Source: a virus
Length of the DNA stretch: 64,000 bases
IMG/VR virus record: IMGVR_UViG_3300009183_000050
Coordinates: 64,001-128,000 of that record
Direction: 5' to 3' (one strand)
Made by a program: the position numbers and the translations under genes. This document shows positions 5,138 to 56,157 of this stretch, one piece after another; the stretch's first letter is position 1, and the number at the start of each line of letters is the position of its first letter. The notes beneath the pieces are model-generated. The model had not been told where the DNA came from. It saw only the letters and a list, made by a program, of their open reading frames with translations, and did no database searches.

Positions 5138-6806
5138 ATACGAAGGTTATCAAGGTAACCCTAATCTACCTAGAGAAGATTACATTCACTCATTCACTCA
5201 GTATGAGATTGATGAGTTCATTAAGTGTGCGAATGATCCTATTTACTTTGCTACCAAGTATATGAAGATTGTCAACGTCGATCACGGTTTGATACCTTTC
5301 AAGATGTGGGACTTTCAGAAAGAAATGCTCACCACATTTCATGAGAACCGCTTCTCTATCTGTAAACTACCTCGACAGGTTGGTAAGACAACAACCGCTG
5401 TAGCATTTTTGCTTCACTTCATTCTTTTTAGTGAATCTGTAAGCATCGCCATTCTCGCCAATAAGTCTAGCACTGCTCGTGAAATTCTAGGTAGACTTCA
5501 ACTTGCTTTCGAATACCTACCTAGGTTTTTACAGCAAGGTATTAAAGAATGGAATAAAGGTTCTATCGAACTTGCTAATGGGTCTAGAGCAATCGCCGAT
5601 TCAACTTCAGGTTCATCTGTCCGTGGTAGAACATTCAACGTCATCTTCCTTGACGAGTTTGCATTCGTACCGAACAACATTGCTGAAGCCTTCTTCATGT
5701 CAACCTACCCTACAATTTCTTCTGGTTCAAATACGAAGGTTATTATCGTCTCTACACCAAACGGTATGAATCTGTTCTATAGAATGTGGATGGATGCGGT
5801 CGAGAAGCGAAGCGACTATCTTCCAATCGAGATTCACTGGTCGATGGTTCCAGGCAGAACGCAAGAATGGAAAGAGCAGGTCATCAGAAACACATCCGAA
5901 GATCAGTTCCGGCAAGAGTTTGAGTGTGAGTTCATTGGTTCTACAAATACACTCATTCATCCAACTAAGATCAGAACACTGGTGTTCCAGAACCCTATCA
6001 CAAAAGAAAACTATCTAGATATCTATGAGGTGCCTCAGATTGGTAAAACCTATCTCATATCCGTAGATGTGGCTGAAGGTCAGGAGAAAGACTACTCCAC
6101 CTTCTCTGTTATAGATGTGACTCAGATACCATATAAACAAGTGGCTAAATATCGAAACAACAAGATTGCACCAATGCTCTATCCAACCGTCATCTATACA
6201 GCGGCCAGAAAGTATAATGATGCCTTTGTATTGGTTGAAATCAACAGTATCGGTATGCAAGTAGCAGACATTCTACATAATGAACTAGCCTATGAAAACT
6301 TAATCAAGATTAGAAACGCTAAAGGTAAAGTAGGTCAGCAAGTAACACCAGGTTATACCAAGCAAATGCAGTTTGGTCTAAAGCAATCGGTTCAAACCAA
6401 GAAGATCGGTTGTGCCAACTTAAAGTCGTTGATTGAAAACGATAAGTTAATCATCAATGATGCTGATACTATCATGGAACTAACTACCTTCTCAGAACAT
6501 AAGACCAGCTTTGCGGCTGAAGAAGGTAATAATGACGATCTCGTGATGACTTTGGTTAACTTCGGTTGGCTCACCTCACAAAGATACTTCAAAGAAAATC
6601 TACAAAACGATATTCGTGCGGTATTGCAACATGAGCAATTCCAGCTTATGGATCAAGACACTGTACCTTTTGGTATCATTGATAATGGTCTAAAAGACGA
6701 TATGGAGGTTGATGTTGATGGTGATCTATGGATAACAGAACGTAAAAAGTTTTGGGCTTTCGATGAGATTGAATGGGACACACTTACAAACAAACACAGG
6801 TTATGA
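5130..6806 (+). CDS. gp17: Terminase large subunit gp17
   Basis: PRQVGKTT Walker A, IFLDEFAF Walker B, VSTPNG, nuclease DVAEG...DDLVM. Confidence 0.97.
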   Translation: MPRYEGYQGNPNLPREDYIHSFTQYEIDEFIKCANDPIYFATKYMKIVNVDHGLIPFKMWDFQKEMLTTFHENRFSICKLPRQVGKTTTAVAFLLHFILFSESVSIAILANKSSTAREILGRLQLAFEYLPRFLQQGIKEWNKGSIELANGSRAIADSTSGSSVRGRTFNVIFLDEFAFVPNNIAEAFFMSTYPTISSGSNTKVIIVSTPNGMNLFYRMWMDAVEKRSDYLPIEIHWSMVPGRTQEWKEQVIRNTSEDQFRQEFECEFIGSTNTLIHPTKIRTLVFQNPITKENYLDIYEVPQIGKTYLISVDVAEGQEKDYSTFSVIDVTQIPYKQVAKYRNNKIAPMLYPTVIYTAARKYNDAFVLVEINSIGMQVADILHNELAYENLIKIRNAKGKVGQQVTPGYTKQMQFGLKQSVQTKKIGCANLKSLIENDKLIINDADTIMELTTFSEHKTSFAAEEGNNDDLVMTLVNFGWLTSQRYFKENLQNDIRAVLQHEQFQLMDQDTVPFGIIDNGLKDDMEVDVDGDLWITERKKFWAFDEIEWDTLTNKHRL

Positions 6807-14963: not shown

Positions 14964-15611
14964 ATGAAACTTATTTCAGAAGAAGTATTAAACGTAAGAT
15001 ACCTTGTTGAAGATAATGGTAAAGGCGGAAAAGACCACTTTATCGAAGGTATCTTTATGCAGGCTGAACGCAAGAACCGTAATGGTCGTGTTTATCCACA
15101 CCAAATTCTTTCAAAAGAAGTTGAAAGATACAATCGTGATTATGTCAGTAAGAACAGAGCATTTGGTGAACTCGGTCATCCAGACTCACCAACAATCAAT
15201 CTAGATCGTGTATCACACATGATTACAAGCTTATCACCAGATGGTAACAACTTCATGGGTAAAGCTAAGATAATGGATACTCCAAACGGTAAAATTGTGA
15301 AGAGTTTATTAGACGGCGGAGCCAGTCTAGGCGTATCAACCAGAGGCGTAGGGTCTCTGAAGCCATCAAACGGGTTTCAACTCGTTCAAGACGATTTTCA
15401 CTTAGCTACAGCGGCAGACATTGTAGCAGACCCATCAGCACCAGATGCTTTCGTAAGAGGTATCATGGAGAATGCTGAATGGATTCTCGTTAACGGTAAA
15501 TGGACTCAGCAACATCTCGAACATGCTAAGAAGTTAATCACTGAAGCTAATCGAAATGATGTTGAAGCTGTAGCACTGAAAGTTTTTCATAATTTTATCT
15601 CGAAACTCTAA
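14964..15611 (+). CDS. gp21: Prohead protease gp21
   Basis: NRNGRVYP, GELGHP, GVSTRGVGSL, DIVADPSAPDA. Confidence 0.96.
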   Translation: MKLISEEVLNVRYLVEDNGKGGKDHFIEGIFMQAERKNRNGRVYPHQILSKEVERYNRDYVSKNRAFGELGHPDSPTINLDRVSHMITSLSPDGNNFMGKAKIMDTPNGKIVKSLLDGGASLGVSTRGVGSLKPSNGFQLVQDDFHLATAADIVADPSAPDAFVRGIMENAEWILVNGKWTQQHLEHAKKLITEANRNDVEAVALKVFHNFISKL

Positions 15612-26784: not shown

Positions 26785-26817
26785 TTTGCTATTCCGTAAA
26801 AGTTGATGTATAATCCA

Positions 26818-26842
26818 AGGGTTGGTGAAAACCAGCCTTTTT
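26818..26842 (+). terminator. Intrinsic terminator
   Basis: GGTTGGT-GAAA-ACCAGCC followed by TTTTT. Confidence 0.75.
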
Positions 26843-26849
26843 CATTTGG

Positions 26850-26915
26850 TATGCGTTGGATGCAGGTCTAGTATTCTCTTTTTGTAGTTGACTTTACCTC
26901 CATCTCCGTTATACT
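26850..26915 (+). promoter_or_regulatory. Early promoter with upstream dyad (copy 1)
   Basis: TATGC-N3-GGATGCA-N23-TTGACT-N16-TATACT. Confidence 0.65.
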
Positions 26916-26939
26916 GAAGGCATAATCAATGAGGGTCTT

Positions 26940-29153
26940 ATGTCGGAACAGAACATCCAGTCCAAATCGCAATTAGCCAAGCTGCTGGCGACCGAGAACA
27001 TCTCGTTCCAGCATGATCCTTCGGCTCGAACTGCCTACTTTGACGTTAAAAACCGTATCTTGGTTCTTCCAGTTTGGCAGAACATTTCAAACGACCTTTA
27101 TGATATGTTGGTCGTTCATGAGGTGGGCCATGCTCTTGATACACCGGCTGATGGCTGGATGAATGCCATTGATAGCATTGCTCAGAATGTCCACGGTTCG
27201 AAAAACCAAAAGTATCAAAGTGCTATCAAAGGCTTCCTCAATGTTGTTGAAGATGCCCGTATCGATAAGCGCCAGAAGCGCCGGTATCCAGGTGCCAAGC
27301 GTAACTACATTGTTGGCTACAAAGAACTGATCGAACGTGACTTCTTTGGCACTTCCAAAAAGAATGCCAATGATATGTCTTTCATCGACCGCTTGAATAT
27401 GTATTTCAAGGGCGGTTCAATGGGCACCTTGGGTCGTATCATCTTCAGTAAAGAAGAAGCACCTTTCGTCAAGCGGGTTGAAAACGCCGAGACCTTCGAA
27501 GATGTTGTCGCCTTGACCGAAGAGATTTATCGTTTCTCGAAGGACAAAGGCGAAGAACAGCAACAGCAGATGGAAGATTTCCGTATGGCTGAAGGCGAAG
27601 AAGATGGTGATGACCTCGAAGAAGGTGATGACTTCGATTTTGATGATGATGTAGAAGAAACCGAAACCGATGGTTCTGGTTCTGATGAAGGTGACTCCGA
27701 AGATGAGTCTGAGGAAGAAGATGGTTCACCTTCTGATAAGAAGGATGAACCTAAAGATTCCGAAGAAGAAGAAGAAAAAGGTCAAACCTCTAATGAAGGT
27801 GCTGGCCCTACCGATGGAGACTTTGTTCCTCAATCTGAGACTGAAAAGGCTTGGGAAGAAAACATCTCAAACATTGTCGCCGATGATAACATCAACTATA
27901 TCTACATGAACCTTCCTAAACCTAATCTCGATAATATTGTTGATGATTATAAGATTGTTCTCAAGGCAATGGAAGCCGAACTCCTCTCTCGCGGTCCTGA
28001 AGCCTTCAAGACTGTTACTGAAGAATTTGGTAAGTTTAAGGCTGAAGAAAACTCCACCATTTCTTACATGGTGAAAGAATTTGAAAGCCGAAAATCTGCT
28101 GAGGCCTATTCGAAGATTTCGGTTGCTAAGACCGGTGTCATTGATACCAACAAGCTTCACTCTTATCGGTACAATGATGATATCTTCCGCCGCTTGGCTA
28201 CTCTGCCTAACGGTAAAAACCACGGCTTCATCATGTTCCTCGATTGGTCTGGTTCTATGATCGACAACATGTCCAAGACCGTCAAGCAACTGATCAGCCT
28301 GACCATGTTCTGTAAGCGGGTTCAGATTCCGTTCGAAGTCTACTTCTTCCGTGACCCTTGCTATACTGACGGTGATCACATTAAAACTTCTTTCAATCCC
28401 GATCCAAAGGCGTTTAAGTTAAACAACTTCCGCTTGCGGAACATCCTTTCGTCTCGGATGAACCTGACGGAATTGAACAAGGCTTATAGTCTCTTGTGGT
28501 ATGCGGGCCGCCGATATAGTGTTTATCGTTGTGATGCTATGAACGGCACGCCTCTCAACCAAGCTATCATTGCCGCTGAAGGTCTGGTTAATGATTTTCG
28601 CAAGCGGAACAAGCTGGAGATCGTCAACACGGTCTTTTTGACTGACGGTGATTCCAACTGCATTGGTTACCCTGATGTAAGTAATGCACCTTATAAACCA
28701 AAAGGTAACCGTTACATTCTAAAAGATGATGTAATGAAAAAAGAATATAACCTCGGTAAGAGTTTGTATTCTGATGATGTAACCAACTCTTTACTTCGCA
28801 TCTTGAAAGACCGCACAGGTTCAAACCTGATTGGTTTCTTCCTTGCTAGTGATAGTCTGCGTCACCTCGTGTATAAAATCTTCGGTTATGGCGCTGATAT
28901 TACCAAATACACCGAAAGCTGGAAGAAAAACAAGTTCTTGCTTGTCCAATCTAAAGGTTATGATGACTACTACATCATCAATGCTAAAGAAATGGATATC
29001 TCGAAGCTTGACTACTCTATCGATACCGACAACATGAGCCGCGCCAAGATGGCTAAGGAGTTCATGAAGTTTTCTGAAAAGAAGTCCGTGAACCGTGTCC
29101 TCTTGAGCCGTTTCATTGAAAAGATTTCTTCCCAAAGCAAGAAAGTGGCTTGA
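26940..29153 (+). CDS. HEXXH metallopeptidase-like + vWA (CobT-like) protein
   Basis: HEVGH...NVVEDARI, acidic linker, MIDAS DWSGS...GTP...TDG. Confidence 0.85.
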   Translation: MSEQNIQSKSQLAKLLATENISFQHDPSARTAYFDVKNRILVLPVWQNISNDLYDMLVVHEVGHALDTPADGWMNAIDSIAQNVHGSKNQKYQSAIKGFLNVVEDARIDKRQKRRYPGAKRNYIVGYKELIERDFFGTSKKNANDMSFIDRLNMYFKGGSMGTLGRIIFSKEEAPFVKRVENAETFEDVVALTEEIYRFSKDKGEEQQQQMEDFRMAEGEEDGDDLEEGDDFDFDDDVEETETDGSGSDEGDSEDESEEEDGSPSDKKDEPKDSEEEEEKGQTSNEGAGPTDGDFVPQSETEKAWEENISNIVADDNINYIYMNLPKPNLDNIVDDYKIVLKAMEAELLSRGPEAFKTVTEEFGKFKAEENSTISYMVKEFESRKSAEAYSKISVAKTGVIDTNKLHSYRYNDDIFRRLATLPNGKNHGFIMFLDWSGSMIDNMSKTVKQLISLTMFCKRVQIPFEVYFFRDPCYTDGDHIKTSFNPDPKAFKLNNFRLRNILSSRMNLTELNKAYSLLWYAGRRYSVYRCDAMNGTPLNQAIIAAEGLVNDFRKRNKLEIVNTVFLTDGDSNCIGYPDVSNAPYKPKGNRYILKDDVMKKEYNLGKSLYSDDVTNSLLRILKDRTGSNLIGFFLASDSLRHLVYKIFGYGADITKYTESWKKNKFLLVQSKGYDDYYIINAKEMDISKLDYSIDTDNMSRAKMAKEFMKFSEKKSVNRVLLSRFIEKISSQSKKVA

Positions 29154-29178
29154 CAAAGCCACCTTTACCGTCTATAAT
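29150..29178 (+). promoter_or_regulatory. Sigma70 consensus promoter
   Basis: TTGACA-N17-TATAAT. Confidence 0.8.
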
Positions 29179-29188
29179 ACATATATGA

Positions 29189-30433
29189 TTGATTGAAACA
29201 GGGAAACTGACCATGCCTAAGTTAGCTAATCGTGACGCCTTCCTCGCCGCCGTCAAATCGACCTACGGTGATATCGAAACCATTGACCGCTCTAAGGTCA
29301 TCAATATCTGCTCGACCTACAATATGGATCTTCCAAACTGGCTATTGAATGACACCAGTCGCCGTGTCGCTCGTGGTGTCTATTCTCTGACCGGTGTGGT
29401 TGCTTCGACTGCTGAGAAGCCTGTCAAAGTGAAACCGGTGGCTGGTGTTCGAGCCACTGTTCCGATGGCTTCACAGCCTGTCGAAATTCTTGTCGCCGCG
29501 GAAATGGCCGCTACTATCTTGCAGATGAATCCTCAGGCCGAAACCTTCACTCTGATTCCTTCGAAGGCCACTGGCTATGTGCCATTCGGCAACTTCAATG
29601 ATGTTCGCCAGATTTTGAAGTCTGGTAAATTCTATCCCATGTATATCACTGGTCTGTCTGGTAACGGTAAGACCATGATGGTCGAGCAAGTGTGCGCTCA
29701 GGAAAAACGTGAACTGGTTCGCACTAACATCACCATCGAAACCGATGAAGATGACTTGCTCGGTGGTTTCCGCTTGCAAGATGGTAAGACGGTCTGGCAG
29801 AATGGTCCAGTCGTGGTCGCCATGGAACGTGGCGCCGTCCTGTTGCTTGATGAGGTTGACCTTGGCTCTAACAAGCTAATGTGCTTGCAACCTGTCCTCG
29901 AAGGCAAGCCTATCTACCTGAAGAAGGTCAACAAGGTGATCACGCCAGCCCCTGGTTTCACCATTGTGGCGACCGCCAACACCAAGGGTAAAGGTTCTGA
30001 TGACGGTCGCTTTATCGGCACCAACGTGATGAACGAAGCCTTCCTTGAGCGTTTCTCGATCACGATGGAACAGGAATATCCCTCGATCAAGGTTGAGCAG
30101 AAGATTGTGGCCAATGCTCTTGGTGCCAACGGCATTGCTGATAATGACTTTGTTGAAAAGCTTGTCACTTGGGCTGATGTAATCCGTAAGTCTTTCTATG
30201 AAGGTGCGGTCTCCGAGATCATCTCGACTCGCCGTCTGGTTCATATCTGTGAAGCCTATGCCATCTTCAACCAAGACCGTGAGAAAGCAATCCAGCTTTG
30301 CTTGAACCGCTTCGATATTGATACCAAGAACTCTTTCCTCGACCTCTACAAGAAGCTGGATGCCAGCCTGTCTCCTCTTCCCGAAGAAGAAACAAAAACC
30401 GAAACACAGGCCGATCCTGAGATCGCCTTCTGA
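29189..30433 (+). CDS. cobS: MoxR/CobS-like AAA+ ATPase
   Basis: GLSGNGKT, LLLDEVD, TANTKGKG..DGRFIG, EAFLERF, ISTRRLVH. Confidence 0.9.
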   Translation: MIETGKLTMPKLANRDAFLAAVKSTYGDIETIDRSKVINICSTYNMDLPNWLLNDTSRRVARGVYSLTGVVASTAEKPVKVKPVAGVRATVPMASQPVEILVAAEMAATILQMNPQAETFTLIPSKATGYVPFGNFNDVRQILKSGKFYPMYITGLSGNGKTMMVEQVCAQEKRELVRTNITIETDEDDLLGGFRLQDGKTVWQNGPVVVAMERGAVLLLDEVDLGSNKLMCLQPVLEGKPIYLKKVNKVITPAPGFTIVATANTKGKGSDDGRFIGTNVMNEAFLERFSITMEQEYPSIKVEQKIVANALGANGIADNDFVEKLVTWADVIRKSFYEGAVSEIISTRRLVHICEAYAIFNQDREKAIQLCLNRFDIDTKNSFLDLYKKLDASLSPLPEEETKTETQADPEIAF

Positions 30434-30529
30434 GATTGACGGGGGCTCCTTTCTCCCTCGTCATAAACTCCACGATGGCGGATTGGTCACCTGCCATCGT
30501 GGAGACTTTTATTTGAGTGACCTTTCATT

Positions 30530-30757
30530 ATGGAGAAAAATTACATGTCACAGTTAGCAAAAATCGAAAAGTACCTTCGCAGCAATTCTACTGGCGCAGG
30601 CGTAACCCCACAAAAGCTGGCTAAGCTGGCTGGTGTTACCAAAGAGGTTGTCTATAAGCGCATCTCCGACCTTCGCAATCTGCGTGGTGAGACCATCTAT
30701 AGCAACCATCGGACTGTCAAAGGTCAGAAGCAACTTTTCTACCGCATCGCCGCATAA
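30530..30757 (+). CDS. Small winged-HTH DNA-binding protein
   Basis: VTPQKLAKLAGVTKEVVYKRISDLR helix-turn-helix pattern. Confidence 0.65.
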   Translation: MEKNYMSQLAKIEKYLRSNSTGAGVTPQKLAKLAGVTKEVVYKRISDLRNLRGETIYSNHRTVKGQKQLFYRIAA

Positions 30758-39617: not shown

Positions 39618-39791
39618 ATGATCTTTGCATTTTTTAAATCAGTGCAGGAAGCAATTTCTGCATACCTAAAATATCGTCGTACCGTATACGAACTCAGCCT
39701 TCTAAGTGGCCGTGATCTTCGTGATCTCGGTATTCATCGTTGTGACATTGAGTTCGTTGCTCGTAAAAGTGCCTTTAAGGTGGCGGAATGA
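39618..39791 (+). CDS. DUF1127 (YjiS-like) small protein, 57 aa, not in ORF track
   Basis: YRRTVYELSLLSGRDLRDLGIHRCDI matches the DUF1127 pattern R...EL..L.D..L.D.G..R.DI. Confidence 0.85.
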   Translation: MIFAFFKSVQEAISAYLKYRRTVYELSLLSGRDLRDLGIHRCDIEFVARKSAFKVAE

Positions 39792-39883: not shown

Positions 39884-39890
39884 GCTATTG

Positions 39891-39914
39891 CAAGAGGGGA
39901 GAAATCCCCTCTTG
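39891..39914 (+). terminator. Hairpin terminator of the hsp20 operon
   Basis: CAAGAGGGGA-GAAA-TCCCCTCTTG, 10-bp stem. Confidence 0.7.
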
Positions 39915-39940
39915 ACTTATATGGAGATATGCTATATAAT
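39912..39940 (+). promoter_or_regulatory. Sigma70 promoter of the glycan cluster
   Basis: TTGACT-N17-TATAAT. Confidence 0.75.
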
Positions 39941-53608: not shown

Positions 53609-56157
53609 TGAAATCATTCTATACAAATGTTCAGGTCTATGGTTCTAGGATCCTGTATCGTGGTGTGAAGAACGGTCGAAAAGTCCGTGAACGGATCGAC
53701 TATCACCCTACGCTATTTGTGCCTTCAAACAAGCCTACGCAATTCACGACAGTCATGGGTGAACATGTTTCAGAGATAAAACCTGGAAACATCCGTGAGT
53801 GTCGTGATTTTGTTAAGCAGTATGACGATGTGCAAGGCTTCAAGATTTATGGTAACCAGAAGTATGAATACACTTTCATCTCTGATGACCATCCACATGA
53901 AGTGGACTGGGACCTTGACGATATCACAACCTGTAACATAGATATCGAAGTGGGTTCTGAGAATGGTTTTCCAGAACCTGATCGAGCAGATGAACCGGTG
54001 ACGGCCATTACCATGAAAATGAGTAATGGTCGTTTCATCGTGCTTGGGTGTGGCGACTTCAACAATGTTCGTGAAGATGTGGTCTATATCAAGTGTCGTG
54101 ATGAAATCGACCTGTTGAAAAGATTTGTTGATGAGTGGACAGGTAACTATCCAGATATCATCACAGGCTGGAACATCAAGCTGTTTGATATCCCTTACAT
54201 GGTCAATCGTATCACTAAGCTACTTGGTGATGAAATGGCAAAGCGTCTATCGCCTTGGGGTATATTGAATGAGCGTGAAGTAAATTTTGGTCCAGGTCGG
54301 CAGTTCAAGACCTATGCCTTACTAGGCATTGCGAGTCTCGACTATATCGATCTGTATCAACGGTATGCTCCTGATGGTAAGTCTCAAGCCTCATACAAAC
54401 TTGACAGTATCGCCAATGTTGAACTGGGTGATCGTAAGCTATCATATGAAGAATATGGTAACTTGCACAGCCTCTATCGTGATAACTATCAGTTATTCAT
54501 TGAGTATAATATCAAGGACGTGGAACTGATTGAACGTCTTGATGATAAGCTGAAGTTGATTGAACTGGCTTTGACTCTTGCGTATGATAGTAAGACAAAC
54601 TATGATGATGTGTTTGCACAAGTTCGTATGTGGGATGCATTGATCTATAACCATCTTCGTGAGAAGAATGTAGTTATTCCACCTATCGTTCATCGCAGTA
54701 AGAATGCGGCCTATGTTGGCGCATATGTAAAAGATCCTATTCTTGGTATGCACAAGTGGATTGCATCATTCGACTTGAACTCTCTCTATCCACATTTGAT
54801 CATGCAGTATAATATCAGCCCTGAAACATTCTTGGAGCCTGAGAACTATGATGATGAATGTCGTTCTATTATTTCTATGGGTGTCAGCGTTGACACTCTT
54901 CTTGATCAAACTAATGACTTATCGAGACTGAGTGAATATACTATAACTCCGAACGGTCAGTTCTTTAAGATTGACAAGCAGGGCTTCTTACCTGAGATGA
55001 TGGAGAGTATGTATAACGGTCGAACGGTATATAAGAAGAAGGCTATCGAGGCGAAGAAAGAGTTGGAACTTGAGAAAGATCCAACCAAACGATATGAGAT
55101 TGAGAAGCGAATTGCTAGATACAACAATCTACAGTTAGCCAAGAAAGTCTGCCTGAACTCAGCTTACGGTGCTTTGGGTAATGAGTTCTTCCGCTTCTTT
55201 GATATTCGTCATGCATCGGCTATCACTACAGCAGGTCAGCTTTCGATCCGTTGGATTGAAAACAAGATCAACGACTATATGAACAAGATTCTAAAAACGG
55301 AGAACCAAGATTATGTTATTGCGTCAGATACGGATTCAATCTATCTGTCTCTTGACCGATTGGTCAACAAAACTATTATTGAGCAGGATGTATCTGTATC
55401 AACAGAGGACGTTATCACCTTCATGGATCGTATCTGTGAAAATAAGATTCAACCTTTTATTGACAACTCCTATTCTGAACTTGCTCGATATACTCATGCC
55501 TATCAGCAAAAAATGATGATGAAGCGTGAAGGTCTGTCTGATAAAGGTATCTGGACAGCCAAGAAACGCTACATTCTAAGAGTGCATAACAATGAAGGTG
55601 TGCAGTATGCTGAACCACAACTGAAGGTCATGGGCCTTGAGATGATCAAGTCCTCTACACCAGCCGCCTGTAAAGAGAAACTGTGGGATGCAATCGATAT
55701 CGTCTTTAACAAAGGTGAAGATGATGTTATTCAATTCATCGAAGAGTTTCGTCAAGAGTTCAAGTCTAAGAATCCGGCAGACATTGCATTCCCTCGTGGC
55801 GTCAATGGTCTATCTAAGTTCTCAGACAAGGCAAACATCTTCGGTAAAGGTTGCCCGATCCATGTTCGTGGTTCACTGATCTATAATGATCTGGTCAAGC
55901 GCAACAAACTACAGAAGAAGTATGAACTCATCAAAGAAGGTGAGAAGATTAAGTTCATCTATCTTAAAGAACCAAATACAATCCAGTCAAACATCATCGC
56001 ATTTCCTAATGTGATACCACCTGAACTCAATCTGCACAAATACATCGACTTCGATATGCAGTATGAAAAGTCTTTTGTTGAACCATTGAAGATCGTATTG
56101 GATAGCATCGGTTGGAAGACGGAACATGTGAGTAGCCTAACCGACTTCTTTGCATAA
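53608..56157 (+). CDS. gp43: Family B DNA polymerase gp43
   Basis: DIEV exonuclease, SFDLNSLYP, K..LNSAYG, ASDTDS, KKRY. Confidence 0.98.
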   Translation: MKSFYTNVQVYGSRILYRGVKNGRKVRERIDYHPTLFVPSNKPTQFTTVMGEHVSEIKPGNIRECRDFVKQYDDVQGFKIYGNQKYEYTFISDDHPHEVDWDLDDITTCNIDIEVGSENGFPEPDRADEPVTAITMKMSNGRFIVLGCGDFNNVREDVVYIKCRDEIDLLKRFVDEWTGNYPDIITGWNIKLFDIPYMVNRITKLLGDEMAKRLSPWGILNEREVNFGPGRQFKTYALLGIASLDYIDLYQRYAPDGKSQASYKLDSIANVELGDRKLSYEEYGNLHSLYRDNYQLFIEYNIKDVELIERLDDKLKLIELALTLAYDSKTNYDDVFAQVRMWDALIYNHLREKNVVIPPIVHRSKNAAYVGAYVKDPILGMHKWIASFDLNSLYPHLIMQYNISPETFLEPENYDDECRSIISMGVSVDTLLDQTNDLSRLSEYTITPNGQFFKIDKQGFLPEMMESMYNGRTVYKKKAIEAKKELELEKDPTKRYEIEKRIARYNNLQLAKKVCLNSAYGALGNEFFRFFDIRHASAITTAGQLSIRWIENKINDYMNKILKTENQDYVIASDTDSIYLSLDRLVNKTIIEQDVSVSTEDVITFMDRICENKIQPFIDNSYSELARYTHAYQQKMMMKREGLSDKGIWTAKKRYILRVHNNEGVQYAEPQLKVMGLEMIKSSTPAACKEKLWDAIDIVFNKGEDDVIQFIEEFRQEFKSKNPADIAFPRGVNGLSKFSDKANIFGKGCPIHVRGSLIYNDLVKRNKLQKKYELIKEGEKIKFIYLKEPNTIQSNIIAFPNVIPPELNLHKYIDFDMQYEKSFVEPLKIVLDSIGWKTEHVSSLTDFFA

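Follow-up and report, generated by a model that had tools for sequence, protein, structure and literature searches.

LsrB/VtlR is a conserved alphaproteobacterial regulator with roles in Sinorhizobium symbiosis, Agrobacterium tumour formation and Brucella virulence. Its box, GCAT-N3-TG-N3-T, was bound in EMSA, its mutation abolished vrsA expression, and it has been described as atypical for LysR regulators (PMC7486931). PabcR1 of S. meliloti has the box at -61 to -49, ahead of a sigma-70 core; without it promoter activity fell more than 22-fold, and the fragment was shifted by LsrB (PMC8844928). LsrB binding to the array of the abcR1 promoter is documented for three species (PMC7486931, PMC8844928), and the published box consensus is based on few, footprint-free sites. 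We reached Rhizobiales genomes via a Devosia locus matched by a DUF1127 protein of the phage described below, located abcR with Rfam ar15 and cut out 48 abcR upstream regions. Unsupervised EM recovered one motif in 37 of these 48, fixed at -71/-72, with the consensus ..atGc....a.tGCATgGCTG.cATGCA with 10-11 nt between it and TTG. Conservation is strongest in TGCAT.GCTG.cATGCA and half-site 1 is weaker, so that the best-conserved dyad consists of boxes 2 and 3 and is centred near -53. A scan for the box together with a perfect CTTGAC-N17-CTATAT core returned only 10 unrelated matches, because the cores of real abcR1 promoters are imperfect.

Two other kinds of described promoter come close to the locus reported here. 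In classical LysR-type promoters, a site near -65 is accompanied by an activation site towards the -35. The PeSL cassettes of T4-type phages consist of a stop codon, a dyad, an A/T-rich stretch, a sigma-70 early promoter, a Shine-Dalgarno sequence and a start codon, and this order is shared by our locus (PMC2839356, PMC4122927). Like the phage module, they are compact, intergenic and recurrent in T4-like genomes.

The window is a stretch of 64,000 nt, bases 64001-128000 of a 140,865-bp IMG/VR virus record with a completeness of about 85%; coordinates refer to the window unless the genome is named. The phage is uncultured, T4-like and of freshwater origin with a GC content of about 41%, and the nearest isolated relatives of its DNA polymerase are cyanophages (cyanomyoviruses) at about 51% identity. 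Early promoters of T4-type phages are read by the host RNA polymerase, and many sigma-70-type promoters are therefore expected; the coding strand is indeed rich in consensus or near-consensus sigma-70 promoters. A preliminary description had singled out two of them, at 26850-26915 and 60261-60326, for a shared geometry of TATGC-N3-GGATGCA, 23 nt, a TTG-type -35, a 16-nt spacer containing CCTCCAT, and the -10. Every one of these elements was confirmed in both copies, as read directly from the sequence:

26817 to 26848, plus strand: intrinsic terminator behind the 433-aa gene upstream, with a 10-bp stem and then a T-run (-13.6 kcal/mol, z -2.5)
26850 to 26864, plus strand: dyad of copy 1, TATGC-GTT-GGATGCA, then 23 nt to the -35
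26862 to 26876, plus strand: stretch of copy 1 matching the LsrB/VtlR box, GCAG-GTC-TA-GTA-T, 5 of 7 box bases
26888 to 26915, plus strand: core of copy 1, -35 TTGACT (26888-26893) and -10 TATACT (26910-26915), 16-nt spacer with CCTCCAT at 26897-26903
26940 to 30757, plus strand: operon predicted under copy 1, with a 737-aa 'peptidase' (phrog_459), a CobS-like AAA+ ATPase and a 75-aa helix-turn-helix (HTH) protein
29213 to 30433, plus strand: CobS-like AAA+ ATPase gene of this operon
30530 to 30757, plus strand: 75-aa HTH gene, last in the peptidase-CobS operon, weak HTH_11 match
60261 to 60275, plus strand: dyad of copy 2, TATGC-ATA-GGATGCA, then 23 nt to the -35
60261 to 60288, plus strand: full module of copy 2, ATGC (60262-60265), N7, GCAT (60273-60276), N7, ATGT (60284-60287)
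60273 to 60285, plus strand: exact published LsrB/VtlR box in copy 2, GCAT-AAC-TG-ATA-T, predicted at -60 to -48
60299 to 60326, plus strand: core of copy 2, -35 TTGCAT (60299-60304) and -10 TATTAT (60321-60326), 16-nt spacer with CCTCCAT at 60308-60314
60354 to 61016, plus strand: small genes predicted under copy 2, ORFs of 45 aa, 76 aa and 106 aa (phrog_16527)

Transcription is predicted to start near 26922 in copy 1 and near 60333 in copy 2. The module of copy 2 overlaps the stop codon of a 78-aa gene, and the 45-aa ORF downstream has GAGGAG 7 nt ahead of its ATG at 60354. The 5' leaders (60333-60356 in the window, and those of the related phage loci L005 and L009) have ATGATTG(n)GAGG in common ahead of the start codon; as this motif is common to several promoters of the class, the similarity reaches past the promoter proper.

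The T-N11-A near -65 by which the preliminary description had recognised a LysR-type site is present. Both copies contain TGC-N7-GCA (26852-26864 and 60263-60275) with the dyad centre at about -64, taking +1 as 7 nt past the -10, and in copy 1 T-N11-A is formally given by T 26852 and A 26864; T-N11-A is a weak criterion that carries almost no information, since it is found at about 1/16 of positions. A classical LysR-type promoter is also resembled in the array of dyad half-sites at helical spacing, from about -72 to -46 and adjoining the -35. Unlike in the classical layout, the best-conserved dyad of the bacterial sites lies near -53, not -65, and no divergently transcribed regulator gene adjoins the phage sites. 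The earlier remark that the window has no LysR gene can be extended, as a search of the entire record revealed no LysR-type HTH.

The two copies belong to a larger class. The exact 12-base dyad occurs only twice in the 140,865-bp genome, and two one-mismatch dyads, at 63677 on the minus strand of the window and at genome position 62694, were dismissed as chance; the former overlaps a ribosome binding site and start codon and the latter lies in coding sequence. Aligning all strong promoters of the genome yielded two further ones, at 6283 and 130188 of the genome, that lie outside the window and carry the module in the same register. The count of two copies was therefore too low, and the class comprises at least four promoters (copies 1 and 2, 6283 and 130188). 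Its array is ATGC-N7-GCAT-N7-ATGC, i.e. three half-sites in alternating orientation, 11 bp apart, with 10 nt to the -35. With the initial T of TATGC as position 1, ATGC occupies positions 2-5, GCAT 13-16 and ATGC 24-27, and the -35 begins at 39 (38 in two sites), so that the gap between array and -35 is 10 nt (9 in two sites); the array spans about -72 to -46, a numbering that uses the predicted start. The dyad of the preliminary description is boxes 1 and 2 of this array, whereas the best-conserved LsrB dyad is boxes 2 and 3, and box 1 is a weak accessory half-site in bacteria.

The likeness to abcR1 (alpha-r15) promoters extends through the whole upstream region. In S. meliloti PabcR1, in A. 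tumefaciens abcR1, atu1667 and vrsA and in B. abortus abcR2 the box lies at about -61 to -49, as in the phage, and both groups have the ATGC-N7-GCAT-N7-ATGC array, a 10-nt gap to a TTG -35, a sigma-70-type core and an A-rich linker (CAAATAA / AAAATAA). Unlike its bacterial counterparts, the phage array precedes protein-coding early genes in AT-richer DNA, its sites mostly have a 16-nt spacer and an added CCTCC element, and copy 1 is degenerate. CCTCC(A/T) stands at spacer positions 4-8 in copies 1 and 2, in L005 and in the second site of the related record G001 (17796), with CCACC in L007; bacterial abcR1 promoters have no such element. The resemblance of individual sites is close. Copy 2 and the natural abcR1 promoter L072 have the nine bases GCATAACTG in common, with TATGC seven bases upstream in both, and the site of phage locus L021, TGCATAGCTGATATGCA, is identical to the natural bacterial site L083, TGCATAGCTGACATGCA, at 16 of 17 positions.

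When both strands were scored with a matrix derived only from the 37 bacterial sites, genome sites 130188 (19.2 bits) and 6283 (18.6) and copy 2 (14.0) were ranks 1 to 3 of 281,670 positions. The best scores in shuffled genomes had a mean maximum of 14.9 and a largest value of 20.4, and the single phage sites (14-19 bits) are not far above these best scores; their significance consequently rests on position and spacing and not on score alone. A composite test that called for at least 10 bits with the bacterial matrix, TTG 7-8 nt further on and a -10 at 16-18 nt returned 4 sites in the genome, whereas 40 Markov shuffles gave 0.025 on average and never more than 1. The fourth site of the genome, which is also the fourth-ranked LsrB-like site by score, lies inside the DNA polymerase gene:

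54737 to 54810, plus strand: LsrB-like site of 13.3 bits with TTGAAC-17-GATCAT behind it at the bacterial spacing

It is kept in G001 at 14.6 bits and may be an internal promoter or reflect mere coding conservation. ATGCA/TGCAT as such is not enriched in intergenic DNA, which holds 5-6% of its occurrences and makes up 4.8% of the genome. Taken at the level of the sequence, we regard the promoter class as real, not a product of chance, and under selection. The sites at 6283, which has the exact GCAT-N3-TG-N3-T box and precedes genes for proteins of 206 aa and 135 aa, and at 130188 are predicted to be good LsrB-type sites, and so is copy 2; the -35 of the latter, TTGCAT, is weak with three of six consensus bases, which would fit an activator-dependent promoter. 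The suggestion of LsrB/VtlR as candidate regulator thereby gains support from the architecture, from the exact box in copy 2 and at 6283 and from the layout of the 37 abcR promoters.

Further copies at the fixed spacing were sought beyond the two added within the genome, and were found at corresponding positions in relatives. We examined the region upstream of the counterpart of the 737-aa gene in IMG/VR records, where the boxes keep their distance to the -35 in L009/L010, L021, L005/L006 and L008, at about 50-58% protein identity. Counterparts of the peptidase promoter scored 29.0 bits in L021, which has the exact LsrB/VtlR box, 23.5 in the complete genome G587, 21.7 in the complete genome G586, 21.0 in L008, 14.5 in L009, 11.9 in L005 and 11.3 in L007. 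The promoters of the 206-aa and 135-aa genes also have sites in G586. In two complete relatives, of 164 and 156 kb, three to four sites of 19-27 bits lie ahead of sigma-70 promoters that precede the counterparts of the peptidase, 206-aa and 135-aa genes. A profile of the relatives' sites found a second site in the record behind L005, and this site maps to the copy 2 locus, whose counterpart in G001 has the same flanking genes. Sites thus persist at corresponding promoters while the proteins have diverged to 37-60% identity. In more distant relatives, L011-L020, the ATGC/GCAT boxes are absent and the counterpart of the 737-aa gene is preceded, at about 60-150 nt, by repeated GTTTACAAT-type boxes, which may represent wiring to a different host regulator.

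Copy 1 stands apart from this pattern. Its dyad consists of half-site 1 (ATGC, 26851-26854) and half-site 2 (GATGCA, 26859-26864); half-site 3 has decayed to ATTC and the TG of the box is lost, so that copy 1 alone does not have the exact LsrB/VtlR box, GCAG-N3-TA-N3-T standing in its place. With the bacterial matrix it reaches 3.9 bits (rank 57 of 281,670 positions). We judge copy 1 to be a decayed member of the class, derived from what remains a strong site in relatives, because the counterpart peptidase promoters score much higher. Whether it is still regulated is finely balanced, with somewhat less than an even chance that copy 1 is a relic of an ancestral LsrB-type site whose likeness to copy 2 is historical only. 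Such a relic would account for the gap between 3.9 bits and the 11-29 bits of the counterparts and for the loss of half-site 3 and the TG, and its TTGACT, with five of six consensus -35 bases, is preceded by a T-rich, UP-like stretch from 26874 to 26887; with these two features copy 1 may now be largely independent of an activator. Against this, half-sites 1 and 2 are intact in the closest relative, L007 (74% protein identity), in which all four central bases are replaced (GTTG to ACCA), and the retention of both arms despite the replaced centre suggests continuing constraint on the arms.

A dyad between a stop codon and an early promoter in a T4-like phage also brings to mind the stem-loop of a PeSL-type terminator/promoter cassette or, alternatively, a patch of recombination homology, neither of which would involve a regulator. 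PeSL-type traits are present, as the class has a strong sigma-70-like early promoter with A/T-rich DNA upstream, is intergenic and is repeated in the genome, and the paralogous copies of one genome look alike (the pair in G001). PeSL-like cassettes whose stem-loops overlap the -35 even exist elsewhere in this phage. In these plus-strand promoters, at 29139-29178 and at about 39885-39940, a G/C-rich stem-loop overlaps or abuts the -35 (GTGGCTTGACAAAGCCAC; GAGGGGAGAAATCCCCTC followed by TTGACT) and a consensus -10 comes next. PeSL stem-loops, however, are stable, often G/C-rich terminators, whereas the dyads of our class form weak hairpins (-3.3 kcal/mol, z -0.24, in copy 1; -5.7 kcal/mol, z -2.0, in copy 2) with no U-run, and it is their sequence and not their pairing that is conserved. 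A terminator-type stable stem-loop was accordingly rejected for both dyads. Moreover, a strong terminator already ends 2 nt upstream of copy 1, so the dyad behind it is not needed for termination. A hairpin would account neither for half-site 3 nor for the constant 10-nt gap before the -35 nor for the identity with bacterial abcR1 promoters, and we consider this explanation highly improbable.

If the boxes are protein sites, the question is which factor reads them. We consider that these are probably sigma-70-type early promoters of a T4-like alphaproteobacterial phage whose upstream region copies the host LsrB/VtlR array of abcR1 promoters. That the host is alphaproteobacterial is pointed to by a full-length permuted alpha_tmRNA in the phage genome (91.9 bits, G000 15021-15358) together with a small gene in the window:

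39618 to 39791, plus strand: DUF1127 small protein gene (41 bits)

A BLAST search of the tmRNA against 401 Alphaproteobacteria gave short, weak matches and no close host. The phage DUF1127 protein had no match among isolated phages, and two module-bearing IMG/VR contigs compared by BLAST with isolated phages gave only distant matches to RNase H and ribonucleotide reductase. The GC content of the phage is far below that typical of Rhizobiales, which counts against the LsrB reading, as does the cyanophage affinity of its DNA polymerase. No Rfam match to an AbcR-like small RNA was found in the window or beside the sites at 6283 and 130188. Among read data sets compared by sampled words of the phage none was RNA, and the DNA sets had at most 0.37 of these words in common with it.

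The distribution of the array beyond this genome bears on the same question. The pattern ATGC-N7-GCAT-N3-TG-N2-ATGC-N11-TTG had 83 matches in IMG/VR, representing at least 54 distinct sites, and its reversed control had 2; the free positions of the IMG/VR matches again spell GCATA.CTG.TATGCA. In bacterial genomes of GTDB, taken as one per species, about 41 of the 80 matches listed were Rhizobiales/Hyphomicrobiales, and among the same 80 were five Rhodobacterales and several other Alphaproteobacteria; many were recognisable abcR1 promoters. In five isolated phages, of Agrobacterium, Sinorhizobium and Rhizobium, no exact GCAT-N3-TG-N2-ATGC-N10-12-TTG occurred, a further point against the LsrB reading. 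A conserved Streptomyces locus (L213, L215, L221, L223, L277, L280) shows a like dyad, GCATGGCTG.CATGCTAGACAT.CGCTTGT, in an unrelated phylum, where it presumably serves another regulator.

The boxes could instead be real sites of a protein other than host LsrB, be it a small HTH protein of the phage or another host regulator that recognises ATGC/GCAT, although we think this unlikely. Two phage products come into question, the 75-aa product of the copy 1 operon (30530-30757) and a 43-aa HTH-like protein whose ORF in G587 lies behind a 27.2-bit site. The conserved HTH gene that closes the peptidase-CobS operon and the location of the G587 site ahead of an HTH-like ORF are in favour of such a factor, as are the like dyads in conserved Streptomyces loci, which imply that the half-site does not belong to a single regulator. 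The 75-aa HTH gene, however, keeps its position in relatives with and without the module and is equally present in those with the box-less promoter (L011-L020); gene and motif therefore do not co-occur, and the 75-aa protein was rejected as cognate factor. Any phage-encoded factor also faces the difficulty that early promoters have to fire ahead of any phage protein, and at bacterial abcR1 promoters an identical array is the target of LsrB, as seen in three species (PMC7486931, PMC8844928). The most likely mechanism appears to be that host LsrB/VtlR or an orthologue activates a subset of the early genes. Host LsrB, present in the cell before infection, would bind the array at about -72 to -46 and would recruit or reposition the host RNA polymerase on a sub-optimal core with its 16-nt spacer and weak -35. 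Expression of a defined subset of early genes would in this way follow host LsrB activity, which reflects growth and redox state.

Phage promoters with sites of host regulators are known for CtrA, PhoB and LexA, and pho boxes have reportedly been found in cyanophages, by Zeng and Chisholm in 2012. The CtrA boxes in alphaproteobacterial phages are host factor sites in phage promoters that tie expression to the state of the host, as would be the case here (PMC9437464). Unlike in CtrA-box or pho-box phages, the proposed regulator is a redox-responsive LysR-type protein, and it is the layout of a whole bacterial promoter that appears to be copied, not a single box. In the literature searched, LsrB/VtlR boxes have not been reported from phages.

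On a much more speculative note, a large assemblage of uncultured alphaproteobacterial phages might keep a small 'LsrB regulon', made up of the peptidase-CobS-HTH operon and a few small early genes, in which LsrB/VtlR serves as sensor of the infection state; the HTH protein of the regulon would feed back on the ATGC/GCAT boxes, shut the promoters and possibly interfere with the host AbcR1 network. We hold this extended scenario to be rather unlikely as a whole. The narrower proposal, activation by host LsrB/VtlR, is open to direct test, given that LsrB proteins, deletion strains and reporter systems exist. With its sequence specificity and its concentration in Rhizobiales and Rhodobacterales, the array could further become a marker for host prediction of uncultured phage contigs. 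If these phages do read LsrB activity, the expression of their early genes would hang on the redox and growth state of the host.
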